Assembly (NCBI GenBank): GCA_002789635.1
Contig: PFTQ01000065.1
Location: 1-42,205 of the forward strand
From: Candidatus Aenigmarchaeota archaeon CG_4_9_14_3_um_filter_37_18
GTDB lineage: Archaea; Aenigmatarchaeota; Aenigmatarchaeia; CG10238-14
Reading direction: 5' to 3'
DNA: 42,205 bases
Shown here: positions 9,363-35,891 of the stretch, piece by piece
Layout of the letters: every line of letters begins with the position of its first letter
Position numbering within the stretch: the first letter of the stretch is position 1
The notes under the pieces: generated by a model
Database searches by the model: none
Told to the model about the DNA's origin: nothing
Seen by the model: the letters and a program-made list of their open reading frames with translations, nothing else
Translations under genes and position numbers: made by a program

Positions 9363-11771
9363 TCACATTAAAGTAATTTCAACTCTTTCCTTCCCACCGC
9401 CTATGTTCTTTCTCTTCAACTTAATCTTTCCGATTTCAGAAGCATTTTTTACATGTGTTCCGCCGCAAGGCATTCCCCAGCTGCCGCACTTCCACCATCT
9501 TTTCTCGGGATCTTTTTTGTCAGGCTCTGACTTTATCTCCAATCCTTTTGCAATTGCTTCATTCGCTTCCTTCTCAATCTCAGGTATTATTTGTGTTATC
9601 GGCTTGTCATACAGAAAGTCTATCCTTGCTTTGTCTGGGTTTATGTTTGATCCGATAATTTTCGGCTTCCCAAGCTTTTCAACGAACGGGTAATAAACTA
9701 TATGTGCGGCTGAATGCAACTTCATCAGGTTGTATCTTCTTTCCCAGCCTAAGCTTAACTGGACAGTATCCCCTGTATTAAAATCAGGCTCTTTTTCAAG
9801 TATATGGACTATCTTATGATTAGCTTTCTTAACTTCAACAAGCGGTATTTCATTAATCGTTCCTCTGTCAGACGCCTGCCCTCCAGAGAACGCAAAGAAC
9901 AATGTTTTGTCAAGAATCACTTCTTTCCCATTGATTTCAATGACTTTAGCCTGCGCTTCTTTCATGTATGGGTCTTGGTAGAATAATCTTTCTGTGTCTA
10001 TTCTTTCAAATTCGACATCTCTTTTTTCTGGCGGTTTTTCAATTCCTTTCTCCTCAGCTAGCTTCACTTCACACTTCCCAGTTTTTGATGAAACTTCCTT
10101 CCCATTAATCAAGCCAAACAAAAGGTCAACGCAAATCTCTCCGCCAGCAGCAGGCATTTCTAATCCCCAGTTCTCAAGAACTTTAGGATTAATCTCGCCA
10201 AACCTTGCCAACACTTTCCCATTAACAACAAACTTTGCAGCCCTGCCAGTAATATAGCAAGGAGCATTTGATTCTTCAACTCCATAATCATTAACGCCAA
10301 CATTGCTTAGGATGCTCTCGACTAAAGATTTCATCTCGGAAAAATTCGCTTTAGAATGGCAAAGTGCAACAGCAAGCCTTTTCATTGATTTGTTTCCAAT
10401 ATCATTATCTTCCAGGGAGACTACATCTCCAACCTCAAACAAATTCTGCGGGTATTCATTGTGCTTATTTCTTGAAAGAACCTCGATCAGACTAGGCAGC
10501 AGCCAATTCCTGACAACATCATACTCGCTTGTCTTGGCATTAGCAGTTTCAGCAACAGGCTTAACATCCATGCACATTTTTTTGAAAAGGCTGTTTTTGT
10601 TTGAAAGAATGAATGTCACAACCTCCTGCATCCCATACCCGACAAGAAGCGAACGCAGTCTTGTGCAGAAGATTTCTTTCTCGTCTTCATCTCCAATCGT
10701 CGATATCTTCGGGATTTCAGGGTCGAATGCCTGATAGCCGTAAGCTATTGCCACATCCTCGACTATGTCTATGCCATGCATGATGTCTGTCCTGTAGCAG
10801 GGAGTTTTCACTTCAATCTTATCTTTTGTTACTTCTTCTGCATCATATCCCATTCTCTGGAGGCATTGGGTTATTTGTAGATTGGTTAGTATCAATCCGA
10901 GAAGCTTGTTGACGTAGTTTGGATTAATTGTGATTATTTTTGTTGATAAGTCAGGAGTGTAAACCATTCTGTCCTCGTATTTGATTTTTATTTTATGGAT
11001 TGCCGCCCCCCGGTCAGCAAAAGTGGTTGCGATTATATTCAGGACTTCATTCGCCGCTTTCTCATCTGTTGCTGTGATGTCGACGAAGATGTTTTTTGTG
11101 TTTTCTTCTACTTTCGTGTCTTCGGAGTTGATTATAGGCGGCATTGACAAGACTTTGCCTCGCCCGTCATGAAGCAGGGGATATTCTTTCATCCCTTCTA
11201 AGACCCAGGCATAATCCTTTCCTTTCGGCAATTCTTCGAGGATCTGCTGCAAGGTCATTTCTTCTTTCTGCTCCAAGGGAATGAATTTGAATTCTTTTGG
11301 TTTGGTTGTGTAGATGACTGGAAATGCAATCTTATCATAGTCATGCAGCCCTATCGCCACTTTCTTTCTTTTCCTGCAGTGGGTGATATGGAGTTTTTCT
11401 TGGACCTGCATTATTGACTTGATGAAATCATCTGTAAATTTGACATTTTTGATCACACACGAGACAAAGTATGGCCTTACCTTCGAGACTTTATCTTCTA
11501 TTATTACCATTTCTTCAGAGCCTTCCAGTTTGTACTTTCTTAAACCAGTTTTCACACCCATATAAGATGAGAATGCCCTTGCCAGACCCTCGACAGATAG
11601 CATGTCAGGCCTGTTTGGGAAGATTTCTACTGTGAATGTGTCTCCTTCTGACCCCTCCCATCCTGTTCCCATCATCGGGATATTTTCTTCTATTTGCTGC
11701 ATGGTGAAATCTTTTCCTACCAGCTGGCAAAAATCTTTTCTATCGATTGTTATTACTGCCATGATTACCAC
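9363..11771 (-). CDS. pheT: Phenylalanine--tRNA ligase beta subunit fused to a C-terminal AlaX-like editing domain
   Basis: Residues 1..~556 are a complete archaeal PheT and end in the usual ...GEINPKVLENWGLEMP..GEICVDLLF. Residues ~593..802 have the AlaX-M layout: LFYQDPY...FSGGQASDRG, HSAAH (9702..9716) and CGGTH (9453..9467). Confidence 0.9.
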   Translation of the reverse strand: MVIMAVITIDRKDFCQLVGKDFTMQQIEENIPMMGTGWEGSEGDTFTVEIFPNRPDMLSVEGLARAFSSYMGVKTGLRKYKLEGSEEMVIIEDKVSKVRPYFVSCVIKNVKFTDDFIKSIMQVQEKLHITHCRKRKKVAIGLHDYDKIAFPVIYTTKPKEFKFIPLEQKEEMTLQQILEELPKGKDYAWVLEGMKEYPLLHDGRGKVLSMPPIINSEDTKVEENTKNIFVDITATDEKAANEVLNIIATTFADRGAAIHKIKIKYEDRMVYTPDLSTKIITINPNYVNKLLGLILTNLQITQCLQRMGYDAEEVTKDKIEVKTPCYRTDIMHGIDIVEDVAIAYGYQAFDPEIPKISTIGDEDEKEIFCTRLRSLLVGYGMQEVVTFILSNKNSLFKKMCMDVKPVAETANAKTSEYDVVRNWLLPSLIEVLSRNKHNEYPQNLFEVGDVVSLEDNDIGNKSMKRLAVALCHSKANFSEMKSLVESILSNVGVNDYGVEESNAPCYITGRAAKFVVNGKVLARFGEINPKVLENWGLEMPAAGGEICVDLLFGLINGKEVSSKTGKCEVKLAEEKGIEKPPEKRDVEFERIDTERLFYQDPYMKEAQAKVIEINGKEVILDKTLFFAFSGGQASDRGTINEIPLVEVKKANHKIVHILEKEPDFNTGDTVQLSLGWERRYNLMKLHSAAHIVYYPFVEKLGKPKIIGSNINPDKARIDFLYDKPITQIIPEIEKEANEAIAKGLEIKSEPDKKDPEKRWWKCGSWGMPCGGTHVKNASEIGKIKLKRKNIGGGKERVEITLM

Positions 11772-25322: not shown

Positions 25323-25715
25323 ATGCCAATAAAAATCATGAAGATTATCATCTTAGACACAAACTTCCTGACAATCCCGTTCCAATTCGGATTGGATATC
25401 TTCAAAGAAATAGACGAGCTAATAGGCGAGGAGCATGAAACAGCAACAATAGACCAGGTAGTAAGAGAGCTTGAGAGCCTTTCAAAAGGCAGAAGCAATA
25501 ATTCAACAGCCGCAAGGATAGGCTTGGAGCTGATAAAGAAAAGACAAGTAAAAATCATTAAAACAAAAGGAAAGAATGCAGACGATGAGATAGTAGAATT
25601 ATCCAACGACAAGACAATAGTAGCAACAAACGATAAAGAATTAATTAATAGACTAAAGAATAAAAATATTAAAGTAATTTATTTAAGAGGTAAAAGTCGC
25701 TTAAATATGAGGTGA
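25323..25715 (+). CDS. PIN-domain ribonuclease (Fcf1/Utp24-like)
   Basis: IILDTNFL ... DDEIVELS ... VATNDKELINRLK, in the conserved position after aIF2-gamma. Confidence 0.8.
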   Translation: MPIKIMKIIILDTNFLTIPFQFGLDIFKEIDELIGEEHETATIDQVVRELESLSKGRSNNSTAARIGLELIKKRQVKIIKTKGKNADDEIVELSNDKTIVATNDKELINRLKNKNIKVIYLRGKSRLNMR

Positions 25716-27769
25716 AAATGTTGATAAATGGCTTGGCAATTAGTTTCATTTCAGCTTTTATTGCATTAGGGTATGCATTCTATTTAGCAATAGGGATAAA
25801 CAAACATAAGATCGGAAATAAAAAAATGAAGGATATATACGAAGCTATAAGGGAAGGATCTAAAGCCTATCTAAAAAGGCAGTACAAGACTATTATCTAT
25901 ATTTCAGTTGTTTTAGCGGTTTTACTCTATTTTGCGTTTGATTTTTCAGGGAACAAATTTCCCTACACATCTTTAGCATTCACTCTAGGCGCTATCTGCT
26001 CGTTAGTTGCAGGATATGTTGGGATGGATGTAGCAACAAAAGCTAATGCAAGAACAGCCTACGCTGGATTGAAAGGAATCAATGAACCAGTCCAAATCGC
26101 TTTTAGAGGCGGGTTGGTTATGGGCTTGTTCAATGTAGGAATGTCTTTACTTGGTGTGTCTGCATTATTCTACTTCTACGACTCTAACCCACACATGATT
26201 ATTGGTTTTGGGTTTGGAGCCAGCCTGTCTGCGTTATTTGCCCAGCTTGGTGGTGGAATCTTCACAAAAGCCGCGGATGTCGGGGCGGATTTGGTTGGAA
26301 AGGTTGAAGCTGGCATTCCAGAAGACGATCCAAGAAACCCAGCAGTTATTGCAGATAATGTTGGCGATAATGTCGGGGATATTGCAGGCAGGGGTGCAGA
26401 CCTTTTTGAGTCATTAACCGGGGAAAATATCGGGGCGATGATAGTAGGATTATCATTATACGCGCTGACAAAAAATTTCTTTTTTGTCTTATTTCCGCTT
26501 CTGGCTAGGAGTGTTGGAATATTCGGAACTATATTCGGCGTCCCGTTTGTTAAAGTGAAAGGGGGGGAAGACCCTATGCGCGGGCTGACAAGAGGTGTTA
26601 TAGCGACAACTTTGTTCTGTATAGTTGGCTTCTATTTTCTGATTAGATTCACTTTGCATAATGTCAACCTATTTTATGCAGGCATGGTCGGTCTGGTCGC
26701 AAGCATTGTAATGATCCTGATAACAGAATACTACACATCAAAGAAGTATAAGCCTGTCAGGGATATAGCAGAAGCGTCTAAAACAGGCCATGCAACAAAC
26801 ATAATCACAGGATTTGCAACAGGCCTTGAAAGCACAGCTTTGCCAGTTATCGTAATATCAATTGCCATTCTTATATCATACTACTTTGGGACTATATTTG
26901 CAGCTCAGGCTAATATAGATAGTTTCATTGGGGGCATATATGGGACAGCTGTTGCAACTATGGGAATGCTATCAATAGCTGGCATGGTTCTTGGATTGGA
27001 TGGTTTTGGGCCTATTGTCGACAATGCAGGCGGCATTGTTGAGATGTCTGGGGGAAGCAGTAAACTGAGAAAAATTACTGATTCTTTAGATTCAGCAGGG
27101 AACACTACCAAAGCATTAACAAAAGGTTATGCGATGGCTTCTGCTGGTTTGGCTGCATTATTGTTGTTCCAAGCATATCTGGAAGTCACTAAAATAACTG
27201 TTGTTGATATAGTTGTCCCGAAGATAATTGTCGGGTTGTTTATCGGGTGTTTGTTGCCGTTTATTTTTGCTTCATTCGCGATCAGGGCTGTGGGAAAAGC
27301 AGCTTTCAAGATGGTTGAGGAGGTAAGAAGGCAGTTCAAAGAAATACCTGGAATAATGACGGGCAAAGCAAAGCCAGACTATTCAAAATGCATTGAAATA
27401 AGCACAGTTGCTGCCCAGAAGGAGATGATCCTGCCTGGGTTGATACCAATAGCCGTCCCGATATTGATTGGGTTCACTTTAGGGGCTGAGGCCGTCGGGG
27501 CATTGCTTATAGGCGCAACCTTGACTGGGTTTATTTTGGCGATGATGATGAACACAGGGGGGGCAGCCTGGGATAATGCCAAGAAATACATAGAAGACGG
27601 ATTCTTGGGTGGAAAGGGATCTGAGGCTCATAAAGCCGCGGTAACCGGAGATACTGTCGGAGACCCATTCAAAGATACAGCAGGCCCATCACTTCATGTG
27701 CTAGTAAAACTATTAAATACTATATGCCTAACATTTGGTATGCTGTTTGTGCTGCATGCATTGTTGTGA
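25712..27769 (+). CDS. hppA: Membrane-bound H+-translocating pyrophosphatase, K+-independent type
   Basis: Canonical V-PPase motifs (DNVGDNVGD, GGAWDNAKK, GDTVGDP). GNTTKA has Lys (codon 27110..27112) where K+-dependent enzymes have Ala. Confidence 0.95.
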   Translation: MKMLINGLAISFISAFIALGYAFYLAIGINKHKIGNKKMKDIYEAIREGSKAYLKRQYKTIIYISVVLAVLLYFAFDFSGNKFPYTSLAFTLGAICSLVAGYVGMDVATKANARTAYAGLKGINEPVQIAFRGGLVMGLFNVGMSLLGVSALFYFYDSNPHMIIGFGFGASLSALFAQLGGGIFTKAADVGADLVGKVEAGIPEDDPRNPAVIADNVGDNVGDIAGRGADLFESLTGENIGAMIVGLSLYALTKNFFFVLFPLLARSVGIFGTIFGVPFVKVKGGEDPMRGLTRGVIATTLFCIVGFYFLIRFTLHNVNLFYAGMVGLVASIVMILITEYYTSKKYKPVRDIAEASKTGHATNIITGFATGLESTALPVIVISIAILISYYFGTIFAAQANIDSFIGGIYGTAVATMGMLSIAGMVLGLDGFGPIVDNAGGIVEMSGGSSKLRKITDSLDSAGNTTKALTKGYAMASAGLAALLLFQAYLEVTKITVVDIVVPKIIVGLFIGCLLPFIFASFAIRAVGKAAFKMVEEVRRQFKEIPGIMTGKAKPDYSKCIEISTVAAQKEMILPGLIPIAVPILIGFTLGAEAVGALLIGATLTGFILAMMMNTGGAAWDNAKKYIEDGFLGGKGSEAHKAAVTGDTVGDPFKDTAGPSLHVLVKLLNTICLTFGMLFVLHALL

Positions 27770-27778
27770 GGGGAATGA

Positions 27779-28360
27779 ATGTATAAGATAGCAACGATTA
27801 AGACGAAAATAAAAGTCCCGCCTACAAAGTTTGGGATGAGCCTTCAAAAAGCCATAAAGGAGAGCATCGCAGATTCTTATGAATGCAGGTTAGACAAGAG
27901 GATAGGCATGGGCTTGGCAGTGACAGAAATAAAAGAGATAGGGGAAGGAAAAATAATCGCAGAAGATGCAAGCATTCATTACCCAGTTACTTTTGATATT
28001 TTAAGCTTTAAGCCAGAGGTCCACGAAATTGTAACCGGGGATGTTATTGACAACACTGAGTTTGGAAGCTTCATAAGAATAGGCCCAATGGATGGTTTAG
28101 TCCATGTATCCCAATTGATGAATGATTATGTTAGCTTTGATGAGAAAAACTCGATTTTTTTAGGGAAAGAAAGCAAAAGGACCCTTAAAGAAGGCGACCC
28201 TGTCAGGGGGAAGGTCATCTCTGTGGCTATGATGCCTGGGAAAGAGAACAAGATCGGATTAACAATGAGGCAGCACAATCTTGGGGCGTTCAGCTGGATA
28301 GAAGACGAAAAGAAAAAGTTTAGAAAGGTTCTGAAAGAGACTCCGAGCAAGAAGAAGTGA
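27779..28360 (+). CDS. rpoE: DNA-directed RNA polymerase subunit E' (Rpo7) with an S1 domain
   Basis: Rpb7-like N-terminus followed by an S1 fold (G.V......FG.F...GP.DGL.H.SQ). Confidence 0.9.
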   Translation: MYKIATIKTKIKVPPTKFGMSLQKAIKESIADSYECRLDKRIGMGLAVTEIKEIGEGKIIAEDASIHYPVTFDILSFKPEVHEIVTGDVIDNTEFGSFIRIGPMDGLVHVSQLMNDYVSFDEKNSIFLGKESKRTLKEGDPVRGKVISVAMMPGKENKIGLTMRQHNLGAFSWIEDEKKKFRKVLKETPSKKK

Positions 28361-28557
28361 TAAAAATGGTTAAAAAACAATATGTATGCAGGAACTGCAA
28401 GATGTTTACCACAGAGAAAGAATGCCCTAACTGCAAGAGCAAGGACTTGTCAGCCAGCTGGAAGGGCGTGGTTATAATCAATAAAATGGAAGACAGCGAG
28501 ATTGTAAAAGCATTGAAAGTTAATAAGCCAGGAAAATATGCTCTATTTGTCGGCTGA
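28357..28557 (+). CDS. spt4: Transcription elongation factor Spt4 / RpoE''
   Basis: CRNC...CPNC zinc ribbon followed by W.G...I. There is a 4-nt overlap with rpoE. Confidence 0.85.
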   Translation: MIKMVKKQYVCRNCKMFTTEKECPNCKSKDLSASWKGVVIINKMEDSEIVKALKVNKPGKYALFVG

Positions 28558-28983
28558 TTTTGTGCTTTCTTCGGGTTGTTCAGGTTTTTCTTCTGCTTTT
28601 TTCTGTTCTTTAGCCTCTGGTTTAGATTCCTTGGGTGTTTCTTTTGGTTTTTCTTGGGTTTTAGTCTCTTCTTTTTTAGGCTTTTCTTTGGTTAATTCCT
28701 CTTCAAAGACATGGCCCCACATCTCTGCCTTAACAACATCATTGTCGTCTTCATCCTTAACTTTTATTGCCTTGATCTTGATTTTTTCAGGGGGTTTCTT
28801 AATGCTTCTATACCATATCGCTTTGTTTATGCTTGCCCCTATCTTGATGTTGTCTGCTTTCATGTGCCTCTTTAGGTATTTCCTGACTATAAATGAAGAT
28901 GCGTGGGATTTTCTTGTTTTTGGGCCTTTCAGGGCTTCTTTTCTTAGGTTTATTGTAAAGACCTTTTCTTCCATAAGCATCAA
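28543..28983 (-). CDS. rpl31e: 50S ribosomal protein L31e with a Lys/Glu-rich C-terminal extension
   Basis: The L31e core is INLRK........R...A...VRKYL.RHMK...I.I....N.AIW.R....PP..I.I. Residues ~94..146 form a K/E/P-rich tail. Confidence 0.9.
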   Translation of the reverse strand: MMLMEEKVFTINLRKEALKGPKTRKSHASSFIVRKYLKRHMKADNIKIGASINKAIWYRSIKKPPEKIKIKAIKVKDEDDNDVVKAEMWGHVFEEELTKEKPKKEETKTQEKPKETPKESKPEAKEQKKAEEKPEQPEESTKSADK

Positions 28984-29129
28984 CTCTATATTAGGGTGGA
29001 AAGTTTAAAAGGTTTGAGTTGAGTTTTTTCATCGGGGAAGTTGCCAAAATTTCATCCGTTAGTTAGACATTTAAGCCTATACTGAAAGTTTATATCCTAT
29101 GAATCAAATAACAAGAAGATATACTGCAA

Positions 29130-29363
29130 GTGGTTCCAAAGTTAATGACCTTGGTGAAAGAGGTTTTTGGACGGGTGTATTTACATATCCTTTGTGCCAA
29201 GGAGCTGAATGTGAGGAATATCAAGATGGTAGATGCTCCTTCAGAGTATATTGTGAAGCCTTTTAACGAGGAGAGAATGGGTGCCTTTGGGATAAATCTG
29301 GAAAAACTAATAGAATTTATATCAAATCAAAAAAAGCGTGTTTTTAAATTTCAAGATACCTAG
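29130..29363 (+). CDS. Hypothetical small protein (doubtful)
   Basis: ORF only, with a non-ATG start in the track. Its 3' end overlaps the convergent 29344..29703 ORF by 20 nt. Confidence 0.25.
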   Translation: MVPKLMTLVKEVFGRVYLHILCAKELNVRNIKMVDAPSEYIVKPFNEERMGAFGINLEKLIEFISNQKKRVFKFQDT

Positions 29364-29703
29364 AATTTTGTACATCATATATTTGATTAAGTCTCCAGTT
29401 TCCTGTATAATGCTCGCTTAATTTTCTTAATAATTCTCCTTCTGAACCCGCTTCTAATATCCAATATTCCCCTCCATCATAGAATGGTCGTGTCGCATCT
29501 AGCGCAACAAACCCGCATCCACCTAGTCTTATTACAGATACTTGATGGGAAATTTGATAAATAATCCTTTCGCCAATACGATCGTCAGATCTGGTAGTGT
29601 ATATTCTAGAATTTGGAAATTCCCTCTGTAATATTTTGCCTAAATCATTTGAGATAAAAACGCATTGACTGAATATTCTTTCAACTGACCATTCTCTTCT
29701 CAA
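29344..29703 (-). CDS. Hypothetical protein
   Basis: ORF with non-repetitive, globular-looking composition. No family was recognised. Confidence 0.45.
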   Translation of the reverse strand: MRREWSVERIFSQCVFISNDLGKILQREFPNSRIYTTRSDDRIGERIIYQISHQVSVIRLGGCGFVALDATRPFYDGGEYWILEAGSEGELLRKLSEHYTGNWRLNQIYDVQNSRYLEI

Positions 29704-29792
29704 CTATTTAATCGCAGATTCATATGTCATAAATATTGCTCAGGTTTTTACTCTCAGTATGGATTTAAATTTTTAACGATGTATCTATTATC

Positions 29793-30101
29793 ATGCTTAA
29801 ACAAGTGCCAGATAGAATAGATAGAATAACTAGAGGTATACCATTGCCTTTTGATCCTCTTCCAACCGTTGTGGTACATCACGGGGTTGATCACAAAGAA
29901 TCAACAATATCCCTTAGCCTCGTGGGAGTTTCCAAATATTTTTTTGTTGAGGGTACAGGGAGGCACATAGCAATATCAGATATAGAAAGACTTCCTATAG
30001 GCGGTTTACCGTTTAATGAAAATGAATATATCGTTGTGGAGCTTGATTGGAAAACGTTTAAACAGTATTGCCAACCCTACAGGCAGGTCAGTTATTGTTA
30101 A
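29793..30101 (+). CDS. Hypothetical protein
   Basis: ORF diverging from 29344..29703. No family was recognised. Confidence 0.4.
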   Translation: MLKQVPDRIDRITRGIPLPFDPLPTVVVHHGVDHKESTISLSLVGVSKYFFVEGTGRHIAISDIERLPIGGLPFNENEYIVVELDWKTFKQYCQPYRQVSYC

Positions 30102-30144
30102 CTTGCAAAGATCTTCTTCTCGCCTTTCAAACCAATCCACTCAT

Positions 30145-30179
30145 TTATAAGTCTTCTCTAACACAAATATTATTCATGA
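30145..30179 (+). repeat. Left copy of a 35-bp perfect direct repeat (ghost copy of the KH-gene promoter and start codon)
   Basis: TTATAAGTCTTCTCTAACACAAATATTATTCATGA is identical to 31922..31956. The flanking bases differ on both sides. Confidence 0.95.
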
Positions 30180-30204
30180 TTTGTCGACAAAAAACTGATT
30201 ATAT

Positions 30205-30480
30205 TCATTCTGAATTCCGAGAAGTAGAATCAGGTATTAACTCTGTTAATATTTTATACGCCTTTGGTAGATCTTTATTCTCAAACAAAAAGAACACTTC
30301 AGTTTCGATGTTAGACGTTCCAATCATATTTACATTATTGAAAGCTAGATTCTTGCTAAGAAGATAAAAGAATCCTGGTGTTGTAATATACTTTTTTGGA
30401 ATATACATGAGAATTATATCAAGATTATTTCTTGTAGTGACAATCTCATCTTTACTAAAAACTTTCAAAAATTTCTCCAA
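30205..30480 (-). CDS. Small ACT-like (ligand-binding fold) protein
   Basis: ILMYIPKKYITTPGFFYLLSKNLAFNNVNMIGTSNIETEVFFLFENKDLPKAYKIL follows the ACT/ACT_7 pattern (..G..tpG....is..La...iNi...s..e..i..lv...d..ka...L). Judged by eye only. Confidence 0.4.
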   Translation of the reverse strand: MEKFLKVFSKDEIVTTRNNLDIILMYIPKKYITTPGFFYLLSKNLAFNNVNMIGTSNIETEVFFLFENKDLPKAYKILTELIPDSTSRNSE

Positions 30481-30800
30481 AAGGAATGGAAAGACCTCCT
30501 AAAAAGAGCCAAAAAGAATAAACTGAAGATAGTCTTATTTACCAAGGAAGCACAGATAAGTAAAACATACGAAGAGTATATTGATAAGATGAAGGATAGA
30601 GTTTTTGATTCCATTAACATTATAGGAATGGGTGTTGTTGGACCAAAGGAAAAAGTAACTAGTTTTTCTGGCGACTTGACTTTGTTAAGATAGACTATTG
30701 TGTTATCCTGAATTGTTTGCAGCCTTCTCGTACCTATAAAATCTATCGAATCAGAAAGGAAGTGATCTTGATCGTTCAAACCAATATTCCTACAGTTCAT
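30465..30800 (-). CDS. Hypothetical protein with a soluble N-terminal half and two predicted TM segments
   Basis: The ATG follows the HEPN stop with no gap. The C-terminal half (LSFILSIYSSYVLLICASLV, IFSLFFLALF) is hydrophobic. Caveat: a plus-strand frame (30349..30690) is also open here but lacks a start codon. Confidence 0.35.
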   Translation of the reverse strand: MNCRNIGLNDQDHFLSDSIDFIGTRRLQTIQDNTIVYLNKVKSPEKLVTFSFGPTTPIPIMLMESKTLSFILSIYSSYVLLICASLVNKTIFSLFFLALFRRSFHSFWRNF

Positions 30801-31241
30801 TCAATTGTTTTCTATCTCTTTCCTCAAAATTTTAAGAATTTCTTCCCCGCATTTATCCCAAAAACCCAGTATTTCCTCTGTTTGGGGTATAGAAGTTCTG
30901 AAGCCCCTGTAATTCACATCATGCCTGATTTTCTTAAACCTGCCAAGGGAATTTAATTTGACTTTATCTCTTATATCAAATTCCTTGAGGATTTCCATGC
31001 TAACCTCATGATTCCCAGGCTCAAACCCAAGAAGCCCTAATTTGACATCCCCCAACTGCCGAATGGATTCATAAACTTCCCTAAAAATAAGAGTTGCTGT
31101 GTCTTTATTTAGTTTAATGGACTTGGCGACTTTTGCATTTATCTCTGCGGAGTTCATCATAGCCTTTATTTTCTCAATATCCTTCTGCTTATTCCTCAGA
31201 ACGCCGATTTTGAGCCAAGCGGAAATAACCTCTTTCCTCAT
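30801..31241 (-). CDS. HEPN-domain protein (toxin-type partner of the nucleotidyltransferase)
   Basis: R-x5-H motif RFKKIRHDVNY near the C-terminus, about 145 aa, and an ATGA overlap with the upstream MNT gene. Confidence 0.78.
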   Translation of the reverse strand: MRKEVISAWLKIGVLRNKQKDIEKIKAMMNSAEINAKVAKSIKLNKDTATLIFREVYESIRQLGDVKLGLLGFEPGNHEVSMEILKEFDIRDKVKLNSLGRFKKIRHDVNYRGFRTSIPQTEEILGFWDKCGEEILKILRKEIENN

Positions 31242-31822
31242 TTTTTAACCTCCAAAAATCCCCAAAGCAAAATGCCGTTTGCAATGTTGTTGAATACTCC
31301 TATATCTATATCGCTCCTGCTGAATAAATGTATTTGGATTTTTCTTCCTATAATCTGCTCAAACTCAGCAAGCTCCCTTAATCCTGTGATCTGGTATTCT
31401 TTGGCTTCATCGGTTTCTATGGCTATATCAATATCCGAATTCGACAAATCCTCGCCTTTCCTGAAGCTGCCAAACAAAACTACGGCTCTCGGATTCTTGT
31501 AAAAATCCACCAGAAACTCAACTAGACCGCTTCTATACACAAAATCGAGATTATAGACTATTTTGCTCCTTATGTAGAGCCAACTTGTTTGATTTGCCTT
31601 TATTCTCCATATTTTGCTCAGCTTCTCTATAGTTATCAGTCCTGCTTCTTGGAATTCCCCTAAAATTCCCCCGATATTCGGCTTTGCAATCCCCGCTTCT
31701 CTTGCAAGATCGCTTAGACTAAACTCCTTTTCTGGGTACCTGAACAAAACTTCTGCGACCTTTTGTTTAGCGGTTTCATCATATAACTTATGGTATTTTT
31801 TATGAACAATCGGTTTCATCAT
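31238..31822 (-). CDS. wHTH-fused minimal nucleotidyltransferase (MNT)
   Basis: N-terminal wHTH (FSLSDLAREAGIAKPNIGGILGEFQEAGLI) followed by the pol-beta NTase signature LFGSFRKGEDLSNSDIDIAI. Confidence 0.83.
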   Translation of the reverse strand: MMKPIVHKKYHKLYDETAKQKVAEVLFRYPEKEFSLSDLAREAGIAKPNIGGILGEFQEAGLITIEKLSKIWRIKANQTSWLYIRSKIVYNLDFVYRSGLVEFLVDFYKNPRAVVLFGSFRKGEDLSNSDIDIAIETDEAKEYQITGLRELAEFEQIIGRKIQIHLFSRSDIDIGVFNNIANGILLWGFLEVKK

Positions 31823-31921
31823 ATTACATATGTTATAAAATAGAACTATATAAACTTTACGCTTGTCAAATTTGCATCATTTTTAACGAAAAGCCATATA
31901 TTCTCCTTGAATCTGCAAGGC

Positions 31922-31956
31922 TTATAAGTCTTCTCTAACACAAATATTATTCATGA
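31922..31956 (+). repeat. Right copy of the 35-bp perfect direct repeat; the functional promoter and start of the KH-domain gene
   Basis: Identical to 30145..30179. It contains TTATAAGT (31922..31929) and the ATG at 31953. Confidence 0.95.
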
Positions 31957-32453
31957 AATACCCAATCTGCAAGCTATGCCTGAAGAACGAAATCCTATGC
32001 GGCAGCTGCGCTAAAAGAGTAGGCGAAAGCCTGATTAAAATCGACGAGATAGAAATGTTTAGAAAGCTCGAAAAGCTGACTAGAAAGTATGCCTTGCTGA
32101 AAGATGTGGAAATACAAAGGATAATAGACAGCCCAAACATGCTTCTTATACTAGCTGGGAAAGAAAACGCGTCCAAAATAATCGGGAAAGAAGGCGGAAT
32201 GATCAAGAAATTGAGCCAAGACCTAGGGAAACAGATAAGGGTTATTGCCGGCATGTCCAATCTTGAAGATTTTGTAAAAGAGATTTTCTTCTCAACAAAC
32301 ATACTCGGAATAAACGTAATTTATGGGGAAAGGGATATGTATAAAATAAGGCTGCCATCAGCAGAAAGAGAAATACTGCCGATAGACCCTGACAAGTTCT
32401 CGAAGGCTGCTAATTCTATCTTTGGCGTGGATGCTGAGCTGGTTTTTGAGTAG
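31953..32453 (+). CDS. NusA-like KH-domain protein with an N-terminal zinc ribbon
   Basis: CKLC....CGSC, then a KH GXXG loop in IIGKEGGMIKKL. Confidence 0.72.
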   Translation: MKYPICKLCLKNEILCGSCAKRVGESLIKIDEIEMFRKLEKLTRKYALLKDVEIQRIIDSPNMLLILAGKENASKIIGKEGGMIKKLSQDLGKQIRVIAGMSNLEDFVKEIFFSTNILGINVIYGERDMYKIRLPSAEREILPIDPDKFSKAANSIFGVDAELVFE

Positions 32454-32494
32454 GGTTTAGGGATTATTTATTTTATAAAATTAATATCCTCTGT

Positions 32495-33106
32495 ATGGAA
32501 ATTGAGATTTCTAAAAAGACGATAAAACTAGAGAAAGAGCTCAATTTAGTGGATGAATTTGTTATAGATGTTTCTAAAATATTGGGAGAATACTTCAATT
32601 ACGTAATAGTCTCCGGTTATTTGCCTATCCTTTTTGGCAAGGTTAGGGGAACAGAAGACGTGGATGTTTTTATCGAAGAGGTATCACTTGAAAAATTCAA
32701 AGAATTCTGTGAAGAACTTGATAGAAGGGGCTATGAAATCCTGAATTCAAAAGATGCAGAAGACGCCTACGATATATTGAAGGAAAGGCTTGCTATTAGG
32801 CTGTCAAAGGAAGGCGAGTTTATACCTAATTTTGAATTGAAGTTCCCAGAAGATGTTTGGGGAACAAGGTCTATTAAGGAGAGAATTAAGGTTGTGCTGA
32901 ATGGGAATGAGTTTTTCATAAGTTCAATTGAAATGAATATAGCATTCAAGATATACTTGGGGAGTAGAAAGGACATAGACGATGCATGCCATCTCTACTT
33001 GTTATTCAAAAAGCTAAAGCATTTAGACGAGGGAGAGATAAAAAAAATTTGTTCTGAACTAGGGGTTACCCCAGATATACTAAAAAGGTGTAAAGATGAG
33101 GAATGA
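32495..33106 (+). CDS. Nucleotidyltransferase-fold protein (DUF2204-like)
   Basis: SGYLPILFGKVRGTEDVDVFI (a G..x..DxD NTase-type motif) and a C-terminal ISSIEMNIAFKIYLGSRKDIDDACHL pattern. Confidence 0.6.
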   Translation: MEIEISKKTIKLEKELNLVDEFVIDVSKILGEYFNYVIVSGYLPILFGKVRGTEDVDVFIEEVSLEKFKEFCEELDRRGYEILNSKDAEDAYDILKERLAIRLSKEGEFIPNFELKFPEDVWGTRSIKERIKVVLNGNEFFISSIEMNIAFKIYLGSRKDIDDACHLYLLFKKLKHLDEGEIKKICSELGVTPDILKRCKDEE

Positions 33107-33260
33107 ACTGGAAAAAAAGTTGATTGACGAAAAGATAAGGTTCACGAGGATTTGGGTAGACCACATGCTAAATTCAACTAACAAGAAGTGGAGCTCTGAA
33201 CAGAAGAGGTTCATTAATTCTATAATAGGGGCCAGCAGGAAGAATAAGATTGATTCATAG
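33096..33260 (+). CDS. Possible 54-aa ORF overlapping the end of the NTase-fold gene (below the ORF-track length cut-off)
   Basis: Hand translation: MRNELEKKLIDEKIRFTRIWVDHMLNSTNKKWSSEQKRFINSIIGASRKNKIDS. Its ATG overlaps the upstream gene by 11 nt. Confidence 0.3.
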   Translation: MRNELEKKLIDEKIRFTRIWVDHMLNSTNKKWSSEQKRFINSIIGASRKNKIDS

Positions 33261-33363
33261 GTATCCTGAGTGTTTCTTTAGTAAGTAGAAGGGTTTTTCA
33301 AGGAAATATATATTAGCAGGAAAAATTGAAAAACGATGGATTTATATATGAATTAATATAATA

Positions 33364-33383
33364 AATTATATAGAATTATATAG
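33364..33383 (+). promoter_or_regulatory. Perfect tandem 10-bp repeat (AATTATATAG x2) just upstream of the wHTH/RelE-like pair; candidate TATA box or operator
   Basis: Read directly. It is followed by GGGAGA and the ATG at 33393. Confidence 0.35.
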
Positions 33384-33392
33384 GGAGATAAT

Positions 33393-33656
33393 ATGCTACA
33401 ACAAAAAATAATCCATTACCCAAACCTTAAGACAGTCCTTATGGTCGAAGAAGTGCTTAAAAATGCAGAAGAACCATTGACTAAAACACAAATTAAAGAG
33501 ATGCTGCCAAAATCAATAATGCACCAAACACTAAGTCTAATTCTAGAGTATTTCGAGAGCAGAGGGATGATAGCTTTCACGAGCCATGGGATAGTATGGA
33601 TATATAACCCTAGCCCAAAATTACAAGCCGCGATTGAAAGAGGTGTGGTGGTTTAG
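33393..33656 (+). CDS. Small winged-helix protein, antitoxin-like
   Basis: 87 aa with a wHTH-like pattern (LTKTQIKEMLPKSIMHQTLSLILEYFESRGMI). It lies immediately upstream of a RelE/ParE-like ORF. Confidence 0.55.
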   Translation: MLQQKIIHYPNLKTVLMVEEVLKNAEEPLTKTQIKEMLPKSIMHQTLSLILEYFESRGMIAFTSHGIVWIYNPSPKLQAAIERGVVV

Positions 33657-33660
33657 TTTT

Positions 33661-34038
33661 ATGGTCAAAAACAAACAGATTCAAGTTATATTATCCGAAG
33701 AAGCAGACGAGCAAATTATGAAACTAAATGAAATAGTTGGGGAAGAAATAAAGAGAGGTATAAAGAAATCTGAAAACCAAATACTACTAAAATCATCAAA
33801 AAGAGCTATTGATATTTTGAAATCAAACCCATTCGCGGGAACTCATGTCAAGAAATCACTCATGCCAGAAAAATACATCAAAAATTATGACGCTAGTAAT
33901 TTATGGAAATTCGATTTGTCTAATTTTTGGCGAATGATATACACAGTGAAAGGTAATGACATCGAAATAATTTCCTTTATTCTAGACATAGTCGACCATA
34001 ATACTTACAATAAAATATTTGGTTATAGGAAGAAGTGA
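33661..34038 (+). CDS. RelE/ParE-superfamily toxin-like protein
   Basis: NPFAG..V.K........L.K..L..FWRMIYTVKGNDIEIISFILDIVDHNTYNK matches the RelE/ParE C-terminal pattern. ATG 33661 is preferred over the TTG at 33634. Confidence 0.55.
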   Translation: MVKNKQIQVILSEEADEQIMKLNEIVGEEIKRGIKKSENQILLKSSKRAIDILKSNPFAGTHVKKSLMPEKYIKNYDASNLWKFDLSNFWRMIYTVKGNDIEIISFILDIVDHNTYNKIFGYRKK

Positions 34039-34084
34039 TGGAGATTTTTCAAGAAAATTTCATATCAATTCAACCTCTAATCAC

Positions 34085-34092
34085 TTATAAGT
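34085..34092 (+). promoter_or_regulatory. TATA-like TTATAAGT 31 nt upstream of the ABCE1 ATG (probable leaderless transcript)
   Basis: The same octamer sits at the same 31-nt spacing as at 31922..31929 upstream of the KH gene. There is no purine-rich RBS in between. Confidence 0.4.
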
Positions 34093-34115
34093 TTTCATAA
34101 TCATTAATTCTACTC

Positions 34116-35891
34116 ATGACAAGGATAGCAATAATCAACCGAGAGCTATGCAAGAAGGATAAATGCGGGTACCTATGCAAGAAAGTATGCCCCATCAACC
34201 GGACAAACGAAGAATGCATAGTCGTAGATGAGAAGACTGGATTTCCAATCATCGACGAGGGCTTATGCATAGGCTGCGGTCTATGCGTGAGCAAATGCGA
34301 CAAAGCCGAGTACAAGGCTATTCATGTGGTCAACCTCCCTGAACAACTCAAGGAAAGCCCTATCCACCGTTTTGGCAAGAACCAATTCATCCTTTACAGG
34401 CTGCCATTTCCCAGCCCTGGAAAGATCGTGGGCCTGGTCGGGTCGAACGGTCTTGGAAAAACGACAGCATTGGAAATACTTTCTGGCCAGCTTAAGCCTA
34501 ATCTTGGAGGGGAAAAAGAGTCCAGCATATCTGAAGTGGTCAAGATGTACAGGGGAACAGAGCTGCAGAACTATCTTGAAAGACTAGAAAACAAACAGAT
34601 GAGAGTCTCCTACAAGCTTCAGCGGGTCGACAAAATACCATCCGCATTCAAGGGAAAAGTCTCAAAACTCCTTGAAAAAACAGATGAGCGCGGCATCTTG
34701 AATGACTTAACAAAAAGGTTTGATATTGAAAGAATCCTGGACAATGATATCGATAAAATATCCGGAGGAGAATTGCAAAGAGTGGCAATAACAGCCTCGC
34801 TGGCAAAAGACGCTGATATCTACTATTTTGACGAGCCTACTAGTTTTCTTGATGTTTTCCAAAGATTAGAAGTTTCAAAGACTATTCGCGAACTTTGCAA
34901 AGACAAGTCAGTTATAGTTGTTGATCATGATTTGGCAACATTGGATTTTCTTGCTGACAACATCCATATCTTCTACGGTGTGCCTGGTATTTATGGGATA
35001 GTTTCGGTTCCTTACTCAGTCAGGGTTGGGATTAATGCATTTTTAGATGGTTATATCAAAGAGGACAATGTAAGAATGAGGAAAGAATCTATTCACTTTC
35101 AGTCAACATTCATTGAACAGCAAGGTGGGATAGAACAGATAATAAGCTTTGAGAATATTAAAAAGAAACTTGGTAATTTTGAATTAACTGTAAAGGGCGG
35201 AGAGCTTTACAGACAGGAAGTGCTTGGGATATTGGGTGCTAACGCTCTAGGAAAAACAACTCTTGCGAGAATTCTGGCTGGAGAAATTAAATCAGACAGT
35301 GGTAAGATAAATGGTAAAATAAAGATTTCTTACAAATCCCAATATCCAAAAACAGATTTTGATGGGACTATACGTGAACTCCTAAAATCAGTAACAAATG
35401 AATTTGGAACAAGTGATTATAAATCAAGAATACTTCGACCTCTTGGCTTAGACAAACTCCTTGAAAAAAATGTTAACAAGCTTTCAGGAGGAGAGTTACA
35501 ACGTGTGGCAGTGGCTGTCTCCTTAAGCAAAAAATCTGATGTCTATCTTTTGGATGAACCTTCGGCTTTCATGGATGTAGAACAAAGGCTAAACCTTGCA
35601 AAAATGATAAGAAATCTGGTTGAGAAAGATGAGACCTCGGCTTTAATAATTGACCATGATCTTTTATTTTTAAGCCAGATTTCAGATAAGGCAATGGTGT
35701 TTCTTGGAAAACCAGGAAAACAAGGTTATACAGAAGAGCCAGAATCAGTTGAAAATGCATTTAATAGATTTTTAGAACAAGTTCAGGTCACCTTCAGGAA
35801 AGATTCCCAAACAGGAAGACCTAGGGCAAATAAATTGGAATCACAAATGGATCAAGAACAAAAAAGTAAAGGGAAATACTTCATGAGTTAA
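34116..35891 (+). CDS. abce1: ABCE1 / RNase L inhibitor-type ribosome-recycling ATPase
   Basis: N-terminal 4Fe-4S ferredoxin Cys clusters (CPINR, CIGCGLC) plus two ABC cassettes (GSNGLGKTT, LSGGELQR x2). Confidence 0.95.
   Translation: MTRIAIINRELCKKDKCGYLCKKVCPINRTNEECIVVDEKTGFPIIDEGLCIGCGLCVSKCDKAEYKAIHVVNLPEQLKESPIHRFGKNQFILYRLPFPSPGKIVGLVGSNGLGKTTALEILSGQLKPNLGGEKESSISEVVKMYRGTELQNYLERLENKQMRVSYKLQRVDKIPSAFKGKVSKLLEKTDERGILNDLTKRFDIERILDNDIDKISGGELQRVAITASLAKDADIYYFDEPTSFLDVFQRLEVSKTIRELCKDKSVIVVDHDLATLDFLADNIHIFYGVPGIYGIVSVPYSVRVGINAFLDGYIKEDNVRMRKESIHFQSTFIEQQGGIEQIISFENIKKKLGNFELTVKGGELYRQEVLGILGANALGKTTLARILAGEIKSDSGKINGKIKISYKSQYPKTDFDGTIRELLKSVTNEFGTSDYKSRILRPLGLDKLLEKNVNKLSGGELQRVAVAVSLSKKSDVYLLDEPSAFMDVEQRLNLAKMIRNLVEKDETSALIIDHDLLFLSQISDKAMVFLGKPGKQGYTEEPESVENAFNRFLEQVQVTFRKDSQTGRPRANKLESQMDQEQKSKGKYFMS

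Follow-up and report, generated by a model that had tools for sequence, protein, structure and literature searches.

A duplicated promoter and start codon flank a toxin–antitoxin-like cassette in an Aenigmarchaeota genome: a probable insertion with long target duplication

The DNA considered here is contig PFTQ01000065.1 of Candidatus Aenigmarchaeota archaeon CG_4_9_14_3_um_filter_37_18, whose full 42,205 nucleotides (nt) we call the window. It is archaeal in content, encoding S6e, eIF2-gamma, Rpb7, Spt4, L31e and ABCE1. Between the gene for L31e and that for a KH-domain, NusA-like housekeeping protein lies a segment of 1742 bp (30180..31921) that is absent from related species and is bracketed by two copies of a 35-bp sequence. 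The KH gene (31953..32453, + strand; 166 aa) matches NCBIfam PRK06418 over its full length at 2.6e-30, and it is the 5′ end of this gene that has been duplicated. The bracketed segment carries a two-gene module encoding an MNT-type nucleotidyltransferase and a HEPN-like protein, which are a putative antitoxin and a putative toxin, respectively.

The 35-mer, TTATAAGTCTTCTCTAACACAAATATTATTCATGA, occurs as two exact + strand copies, at 30145-30179 and 31922-31956. A first-pass annotation, made from the sequence alone, had reported the two identical copies with differing flanks, and this is confirmed: the bases next to the copies are unrelated on either side, with no homeology beyond the repeat. 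There is no further match at three or fewer mismatches in the 42-kb window, where shuffled sequences give an expectation of zero. Both copies, with zero single-nucleotide polymorphisms, are found in 10 of 10 contigs of this population that were assembled independently (megahit k141, Joint Genome Institute (JGI) and two NCBI metagenome-assembled genomes). Since all the independent assemblies agree, the repeat is real and not an assembly artefact. As in the window, the 35-mer is present in every population contig as two copies only.

The right copy (31922..31956, +; exact match) is the core promoter and start codon of the KH gene and is contiguous with its coding sequence. On the target, the repeat spans the interval from the KH TATA box to one base beyond the ATG at 31953. 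The left copy (30145..30179, +; exact match) is a ghost of the same promoter, with its TATA-like TTATAAGT and its ATG. It is preceded by TCATT, the native upstream bases, as in the orthologous promoters of two related lineages (L015 and L013), and its ATG now opens a 63-codon open reading frame (ORF) for which we found no homologue and no Pfam match. In archaeal promoters, the layout of TTATAAGT, about 24 nt and then ATG is that of a TATA box positioned for a leaderless transcript. This layout is the only common ground between the 35-mer and an apparent “third copy”, 71% identical, at 34085-34119, which is the promoter and ATG of ABCE1. Among relatives, conservation is much higher for the ABCE1 promoter than for the KH promoter; L015 matches it at 40 of 44 aligned nt. 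Exactly on the left junction of the insert, at 30180-30191, is a perfect palindrome of 12 bp, TTTGTCGACAAA, with GTCGAC within it.

The MNT protein (31238..31822, − strand; 194 aa) has an N-terminal winged-helix region. It matches Pfam NTP_transf_2 (1.6e-10, above cutoff), Polbeta (1.9e-10) and PADLOC PDC-M05A (3.6e-18); the match to NCBIfam MntA (1.4e-9, 37.8 bits) falls under the curated cutoff of 60. Its homologues, 55-86% identical, always adjoin a HEPN-like gene. In the window, this second gene (30801..31241, − strand; 146 aa) overlaps the MNT stop with its start by 4 nt (ATGA), and its product is a predicted four-helix protein. There are 516 homologues in DPANN archaea, at identities of up to 87%; those with source names come from Woese-, Pace-, Nano- and Aenigmatarchaeota, and the family has an invariant block, R-H-D-x-N-Y-R-G. 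Searches of Pfam, NCBIfam and PDB sequences (by profile) gave no match to this protein. Its AlphaFold2 model, with a predicted local distance difference test score of 91, has as top Foldseek matches the HEPN toxins of MNT-HEPN pairs, weakly so (probability 0.97, E about 0.16, template-modelling score about 0.5), and the sequence matches PADLOC PDC-M05B at 7.8e-5. The designation HEPN-like thus reflects the modelled fold and the PADLOC match, sequence searches having failed. Upstream of the MNT gene is the conserved promoter of the module (31823..31864, − strand), in which transcription factor B recognition (BRE) and TATA elements, ...AAAGTTTATATAGTTCT..TTTATAACATATGTAAT, precede the ATG; it marks the upstream limit of inter-module homology.

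The first-pass annotation had described the insert as four translationally coupled minus-strand ORFs. Only the MNT and HEPN-like genes are real; the rest is a pseudogene and filler. The pseudogene (30478..30693, + strand) is the 3′ half of a DUF2000 gene, truncated at its 5′ side: it matches Pfam PF09391 at 6.2e-10 over profile positions 66-133 only, and a custom hidden Markov model over positions 63-134 only, the N-terminal half being absent in all six frames. Its best homologues in an exhaustive HMMER search are 36-42% identical and align only in their C-terminal halves. The left-copy ATG was considered as the start of a frameshifted full-length DUF2000 gene and rejected, as the N-terminal half of the family occurs in no frame, and the minus-strand ORF at 30465-30800 was rejected as a gene as it overlies the + strand remnant. 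The left-end filler (30180..30477) begins with TTTGTCGACAAA and contains a 91-codon minus-strand ORF of doubtful reality (30205-30480), which has no family match above threshold in Pfam, NCBIfam or PADLOC. At about 140 other loci the module is found with neither this ORF nor the DUF2000 piece beside it. As regards the donor, a word-indexed search with the DUF2000 remnant returned only the window's own protein, and the HMMER relatives came without context. The insert thus consists of a module of two genes and of debris from the genome in which it lay before.

No gene for mobility accompanies this module, as the first-pass annotation had also stated. Integrases and transposases were absent from the insert, from the ORFs around it, from the window's large ORFs (Pfam, NCBIfam and PADLOC) and from the gene tables of about 10 kb on either side, and scans of the window gave no Cas1. 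The insert has no terminal inverted repeats, the best inverted match of its ends being 9 nt, which is within the range of shuffles. No tRNA or Rfam match is present at the site (27500-35000), and with respect to a viral or plasmid vector, neither the module nor the 35-mer was found in IMG/VR viral contigs.

The polarity of the event comes from related species. KH orthologues, 62-72% identical, could be traced to contigs of four related lineages (L011/L012, L014, L015 and L013). In L011/L012, L014 and L015 the synteny is Rpb7-Spt4-L31e(−)|KH(+), with a gap of about 95 bp between L31e and KH and one promoter copy immediately before the KH ATG; in the window, the L31e-KH distance is 2.97 kb. This single orthologous copy is identical to the 35-mer at 29 of 35 positions in L011 and L014 and at 26 of 35 in L015; the KH proteins of the single-copy species are 64-72% identical to that of the window. 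Since the relatives have one copy beside L31e, the window carries the derived state, an insertion. The right copy is accordingly the orthologue of this KH promoter and still has its native neighbour, KH, downstream of it. The reading of the bracketed segment as an insertion that regenerated the promoter and start of KH, as proposed at first pass, thus stands, together with the assignment of the right copy to the KH gene and of the left one to a ghost.

The module itself is found in many other places. Its MNT and HEPN-like genes stand side by side in 60 species-representative genomes and 80 metagenome contigs, and the neighbourhood differs each time. Where two modules in unrelated contexts have 89-92% nt identity, homology starts 42-69 nt before the MNT ATG and ends 6-44 nt past the HEPN stop; for modules in unrelated contexts as a whole, the limits are about 37-69 nt upstream of the ATG and 0-44 nt after the stop. 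Beyond promoter and stop, modules of different contexts have no similarity. The nearest relatives of the window module, at about 78% nt identity, likewise sit in unrelated contexts of other genomes. Homology limits so close to the promoter and the stop indicate that the unit moves between genomes as about 1.1 kb, sometimes with arbitrary extra flank.

The scar seen at the KH gene recurs elsewhere with other sequences. Among 84 non-identical module loci with enough flank, there are 15, the window included, at which the module stands tightly between the copies of a perfect direct repeat (17-42 nt), and these represent 14 independent lineages. When upstream and downstream windows were paired across different loci, 17 nt was reached in 0.2% of trials. 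The upstream copy is separated from the ATG by 26-423 nt. From the stop to the downstream copy there are at most about 140 nt, except in the window and in L164, where there are about 600. The repeat differs at every locus, and each is a piece of a local host gene, either its 3′ end or its promoter and start; the repeats of the 14 independent loci have no common core. They derive, for example, from the 3′ end of the cysteinyl-tRNA synthetase (CysRS) gene (42 nt in L019), from the final codons of uS7 with its stop (29 nt perfect in L075, or 47 nt when synonymous-type differences are allowed), from the C-terminal ends of convergent genes (L065, L145, L105 and L156), from a UvrD-like C-terminus, from the end of a TopA-like zinc ribbon (34 nt in L100) and from the start of a RadC-like gene (L072). 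The first-pass annotation had seen attL/attR cores in the 35-mers and had suggested looking for the same cassette between different repeats. The 14 further non-identical loci provide exactly this, and they speak against such cores, for the repeats at homologous modules are all different, 17-42 bp where perfect and up to about 150 bp where diverged, and all are pieces of the adjoining host gene.

In several cases, the perfect core lies within a longer, diverged repeat (128 bp at 89% in L105, 149 bp at 79% in L145); diverged repeats of about 105-150 bp are found in L023, L105 and L145. Ghost gene ends carry frame-compatible differences, for example uS7 ...ADAAR* and UvrD-like NEWVWGL*, and mismatches pooled by codon position number 13/11/26. 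This bias is suggestive of an allelic origin for some repeats and is too weak to decide. Where the module abuts the repeat there can be microhomology, AAATAA in L019 and AAAGAAG in L123.

The same scar also surrounds other toxin–antitoxin (TA) pairs that lie by these modules, namely DUF4258/DUF2283 in L100, L072 and L104 and antitoxin/ParE in L023 and L123. The array at 3297-5301 of L100 is R-[MNT-HEPN]-R-[DUF4258-DUF2283]-R, where R stands for three copies of one repeat of 32-34 bp, each followed by a different allele of the TopA-like gene tail; it is an integron-like array without integrase or attC. In L072 (5222-7976), three serial insertions have entered the 5′ end of the RadC-like gene: the MNT-HEPN module, a DUF2283-containing pair and a 157-aa ORF, with repeats of 23 nt, of 25 nt perfect (or 36 nt with 1 mismatch) and of 17 nt, respectively. 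Here, cassettes separate three copies of one gene start, and the ATG forms the exact beginning of two of the repeats.

Further small cassettes were seen within unique direct repeats of 21-29 bp, at L023 6927-7579, L123 3310-3926, L104 2431-2983 and L113 1841-2745. A scan covering the first three gave TA-family matches in all (antitoxin/ParE, DUF4258), and several of the repeats in this group resemble BRE/TATA promoters. Two other insertions were evident from a comparison of L033 with L111, whose flanks are 85-97% identical: one of 428 bp and a single gene (L033 4600-5027), precisely in the gap that separates the TATA region of a 100-aa gene from its ATG, and one of about 2 kb (L033 6456-8440) after the HEPN gene.

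A second lineage-specific segment in the L31e-KH interval of the window, 1.16 kb long (28984..30144), occupies the stretch from L31e to the left repeat. It has no counterpart in L011, L014 and L015, contains three orphan ORFs (29130-29363 +, 29344-29703 − and 29793-30101 +) and retains an ancestral intergenic piece, TTAGACATTTA, at 29066-29080. We found no recognisable repeat flanking the 28984-30144 segment, which looks like an older insertion, or a separate one of a different kind, at the same hot spot. In L013, a different single-gene insert occupies the same intergenic site, upstream of its one promoter copy. Taken together, this insert and the 1.16-kb segment indicate that the L31e-KH spot accumulates insertions. 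On the other side of KH, up to ABCE1 (32495-34038), there are more cassette-like genes: a DUF2204-like nucleotidyltransferase with a 54-aa ORF, which L015 and L013 have as well, and a winged-helix plus ParE/YoeB-like pair (33393-34038) that is present only in this species. The latter cassette has no spanning direct repeat of 13 nt or more; the best match of its flanks is 12 nt, inside the ABCE1 promoter.

Elsewhere in the window, the region from a PIN_9 gene to Rpb7 (25712-27769) encodes a membrane H+-pyrophosphatase; at the syntenic position L011, L014 and L015 have a soluble pyrophosphatase and a pyruvate-phosphate dikinase, so that the gene content there has been replaced. The 802-aa ORF for the phenylalanyl-tRNA synthetase (PheRS) beta subunit (9363-11771) also matches C-terminal and SAD editing domains of the alanyl-tRNA synthetase type, suggesting that PheRS beta and an AlaX-like editing module have been fused. 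The window's only tRNA gene, tRNA-Arg TCT (2115-2191), is about 400 bp away from the gene of a Bro-N domain protein (854-1708), possibly left by a virus or an integrated element; no integrase was seen there.

How, then, did the repeat arise? We propose, at a probability of roughly 0.62, that the 35-bp repeats are a long target duplication, left where a foreign fragment of about 1.74 kb was joined to the genome by host repair or recombination. The first-pass annotation had thought of an undescribed mechanism, and this holds only in part, since the structure fits a pattern known from the restriction-modification genes of bacteria as “insertion with long target duplication” (PMC2853133). The short stretch between L31e and KH would thereby have received the selfish MNT/HEPN-like module and its own promoter, together with debris of the genome from which the fragment came, namely the DUF2000 half-gene and filler of about 300 bp. 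The two junctions would have overlapped by 35 bp on the target, placing this stretch at both ends of the insert, so that the right copy would keep KH expressed and the left copy would remain as a dead ghost. On this reading the event was not the work of a recombinase recognising the 35-mer; break repair or recombination of the host would have acted on the incoming fragment. Selection would then keep only those insertions that spare the neighbouring essential genes, as here, where the overlap rebuilds the promoter and start of KH, and an addictive TA-like module would resist loss.

Two routes to such a junction may be considered. The first is illegitimate joining with staggered or overlapping junctions, or template switching, which is favoured by the sharp repeats and by the microhomology at the module-repeat borders of L019 and L123. 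The second is circularisation of the fragment followed by a single crossover at a short identical stretch. This is favoured by the perfect cores in diverged homology, the frame-compatible differences of ghost ends, the 13/11/26 bias and the allelic tails of L100. That the repeats are locus-specific, variable and host-derived, with no integrase or transposase, no inverted repeats and no tRNA, argues against both an attachment-site (att) core and a transposase or casposase of fixed stagger.

Several observations weigh against a long target duplication. Neither route explains all the loci, and L019 fits neither cleanly: its upstream copy is followed by the genuine CysRS end, and its downstream copy abuts a fragment of a restriction-modification gene. 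The three-copy arrays with a shared boundary in L100 and L072 look more site-directed than random break repair predicts, and their shared boundaries are a hint of some site preference. A repeat is present at only about one-sixth of the loci, so that duplication is not an obligatory product of insertion. Both insertions distinguishing L033 from L111 are without a long repeat, which means that not every insertion in these lineages duplicates its target. With regard to polarity, single-copy sites beside L31e are those of other species; in an exact scan of JGI metagenome contigs for the left flank, the 35-mer and KH, no same-species empty site (predicted junction ...CCACTCAT + 35-mer + AATACCC...) was found, and every contig read with the exact KH or MNT protein carries the insert. 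The polarity, therefore, rests on the other species. The junction of an excised circle is predicted to be ...CTGCAAGGC + 35-mer + TTTGTCGAC.... As for the cargo, the canonical HEPN motif Rx4-6H is not evident in the HEPN-like protein, and the TA function that we infer for the pair from homology and fold depends on a fold match that is statistically weak.

A broader proposal goes beyond the window, and we put it forward only tentatively, as rather unlikely: that DPANN archaea have a general mode of cassette acquisition, with no cassette-encoded recombinase, in which TA or defence cassettes enter host gene ends, duplicate 17-60 bp and can be stacked into integron-like arrays without integrase or attC, perhaps by means of a host or helper enzyme. 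An enzyme of this kind may drive acquisition, since junctions recur at start codons and the array repeats share a boundary.

Among the rival explanations, the likeliest, though itself improbable, is insertion-duplication of the Campbell type, in which a circularised fragment from a close strain with the module beside KH recombined by one crossover in the shared 35 bp. The perfect cores embedded in longer homology (149 bp in L145, 128 bp in L105, 47 bp in L075) would be natural products of such an event, as would the ghost-end differences that keep the reading frame, the pooled mismatch counts by codon position (13/11/26), as if two alleles of one gene end had met, and the tails of L100, which are allelic variants. 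A donor having the module already by the same gene is, however, required, and the arrival of the module in new contexts is left unexplained. In L019, moreover, duplication is confined to 42 bp, where the model predicts it for the entire shared segment; the perfect-core lengths of L105 and L075 match, by our estimate, the random decay of an initially identical repeat; and the window repeat has no flanking homeology. For pure Campbell-type recombination as the complete explanation, L019 and the near-identical modules in unrelated contexts are disqualifying.

We consider unlikely, and rank just below, site-specific integration in trans, by which the 35-mers would be the attL/attR cores of a non-autonomous cassette whose attP mimics the KH 5′ end and whose integrase is encoded elsewhere. 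Such a system would account for the sharp repeat boundaries and the regenerated gene end, for the presence in L100 and L072 of the same repeat three times, with cassettes between and one boundary shared, and for the allelic tail after each copy in L100, as in tandem islands at one att site. Yet no integrase gene lies in the insert, elsewhere in the window or beside the other modules with bracketing repeats; the 14 independent loci offer no common core and no constant length (17-42 nt); nothing is conserved outside the promoter-to-stop interval that could serve as recombinase arm sites; and random pseudogene debris lies within the insert.

Staggered cutting by a transposase, a casposase or a Cas1-like enzyme, giving a true target-site duplication, we hold to be very improbable. 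Cas1-type integrases duplicate the stretch between their two attack sites, and direct repeats of target sequence do flank the insert, at 35 bp close to the length of a CRISPR repeat. But terminal inverted repeats or conserved ends are missing, repeat length is not fixed (17-42 nt, up to about 150 nt with diverged copies), no transposase or Cas1 occurs in the window, and the ends of the insert are arbitrary and include a truncated pseudogene. As a general explanation, simple staggered-cut duplication is excluded by the variable lengths, the diverged repeats of about 105-150 bp and the three-copy arrays. The least probable account is that there was no insertion, only an old or locally duplicated promoter between whose copies the relatives deleted the segment, or else an assembly artefact: deletion between direct repeats would yield the single-copy state, and no empty site was found in the same species among the JGI contigs, but the module is missing from the site in four related lineages, its nearest relatives (about 78% nt) are in unrelated contexts elsewhere, the two copies are perfectly identical, as against 6-9 differences in 35 positions from the orthologous promoters, and assemblies at k=141 and from other pipelines show the same structure.

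If a long target duplication is accepted, it is a variant that is new for archaea and for TA cargo, and it is recurrent across DPANN genomes. For the restriction-modification genes of bacteria, the leading idea has been that the restriction enzyme's own DNA breaks act as the trigger. Here, the scar flanks at least 14 independent insertions of one MNT/HEPN-like module, together with other TA pairs, and no DNA endonuclease is encoded; recurrence under these circumstances weakens the restriction-break idea. The loci also constitute a natural set of junctions from which the rules may be worked out, including gene-end targeting, overlaps of 17-42 bp, junctions at start codons and three-copy arrays. 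Genome-reduced DPANN archaea, with their tiny intergenic regions, can thus acquire selfish or defence cassettes with the essential neighbours spared, because the duplication rebuilds a promoter or gene end. For annotation there is a warning: the ghost promoters, ghost starts and pseudogene debris that such cassettes leave are easily miscalled as genes.

Among known systems, the closest is insertion with long target duplication, named by Nobusato et al. 2000 (Gene 259:99) and surveyed by Furuta, Abe and Kobayashi 2010 (NAR 38:2428; PMC2853133). The bacterial restriction-modification units of that survey lack mobility genes and lie between long repeats, which vary from case to case and are unique to the locus; a related genome with the empty site has one copy, and the end of a neighbouring gene is often part of the repeat (PMC2853133). 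The survey used a threshold of more than 30 bp and reported lengths of up to about 400 bp; most of its cases were found in bacteria with natural competence, none from archaea passed the screen, and the mechanism was unknown (PMC2853133). The window resembles these cases in having a 35-bp repeat that is unique, single-copy in related species, unaccompanied by mobility genes and not a tRNA att site, and, as there, the length and sequence of the repeat vary among insertions of related cargo (15 of 84 loci, 17-42 nt). It differs in that the cargo consists of MNT/HEPN-like and other TA pairs in DPANN archaea, and not of restriction-modification genes, that the repeats are mostly shorter (17-42 bp perfect) and that three-copy arrays occur. 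The absence of a DNA-cleaving enzyme from the cargo argues against a restriction break as the trigger.

Integrative elements, including trans-mobilised ones, have attL/attR at the 3′ ends of genes and tRNAs, and they share with our loci the repeats at target-gene ends, the reconstitution of the target and the tandem arrays (L100, L072). Unlike in those elements, here there are no integrase, conserved core or arm sites, the repeat differs per locus, and the inserts are of only 0.5-1.8 kb and contain random pseudogene fragments. DNA transposons, insertion sequences and casposons are set apart by terminal inverted repeats and a duplication of fixed length, neither of which is seen here (17-42 nt).

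The cargo resembles the type VII HepT/MntA (HEPN/MNT) TA system and the PADLOC candidate PDC-M05 in its gene order, with MNT first and HEPN-like second, its stop/start overlap, its MNT domain and its HEPN-like fold. It departs from HepT/MntA in the MntA match below the NCBIfam cutoff, the lack of a Pfam HEPN match, the Rx4-6H motif that is not evident and the extra N-terminal winged helix on the MNT protein. With integron cassettes, which are small, promoter-poor or single-operon units, often TA pairs, the arrays have in common that such cassettes stand in series between repeats. In contrast to integrons, IntI is absent, the separating repeats are host gene ends and the cassettes have their own promoters; no attC-like palindrome was seen by eye in the repeat sequences, in which no attC search was made. 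Finally, homology-facilitated illegitimate recombination and Campbell-type integration in transformable bacteria offer a precedent for capture without a dedicated recombinase, with short identity or microhomology at the junction and duplication by a single crossover. Those systems are bacterial, with experimental donors, whereas here the event is inferred, the duplications are very short and L019 does not fit.

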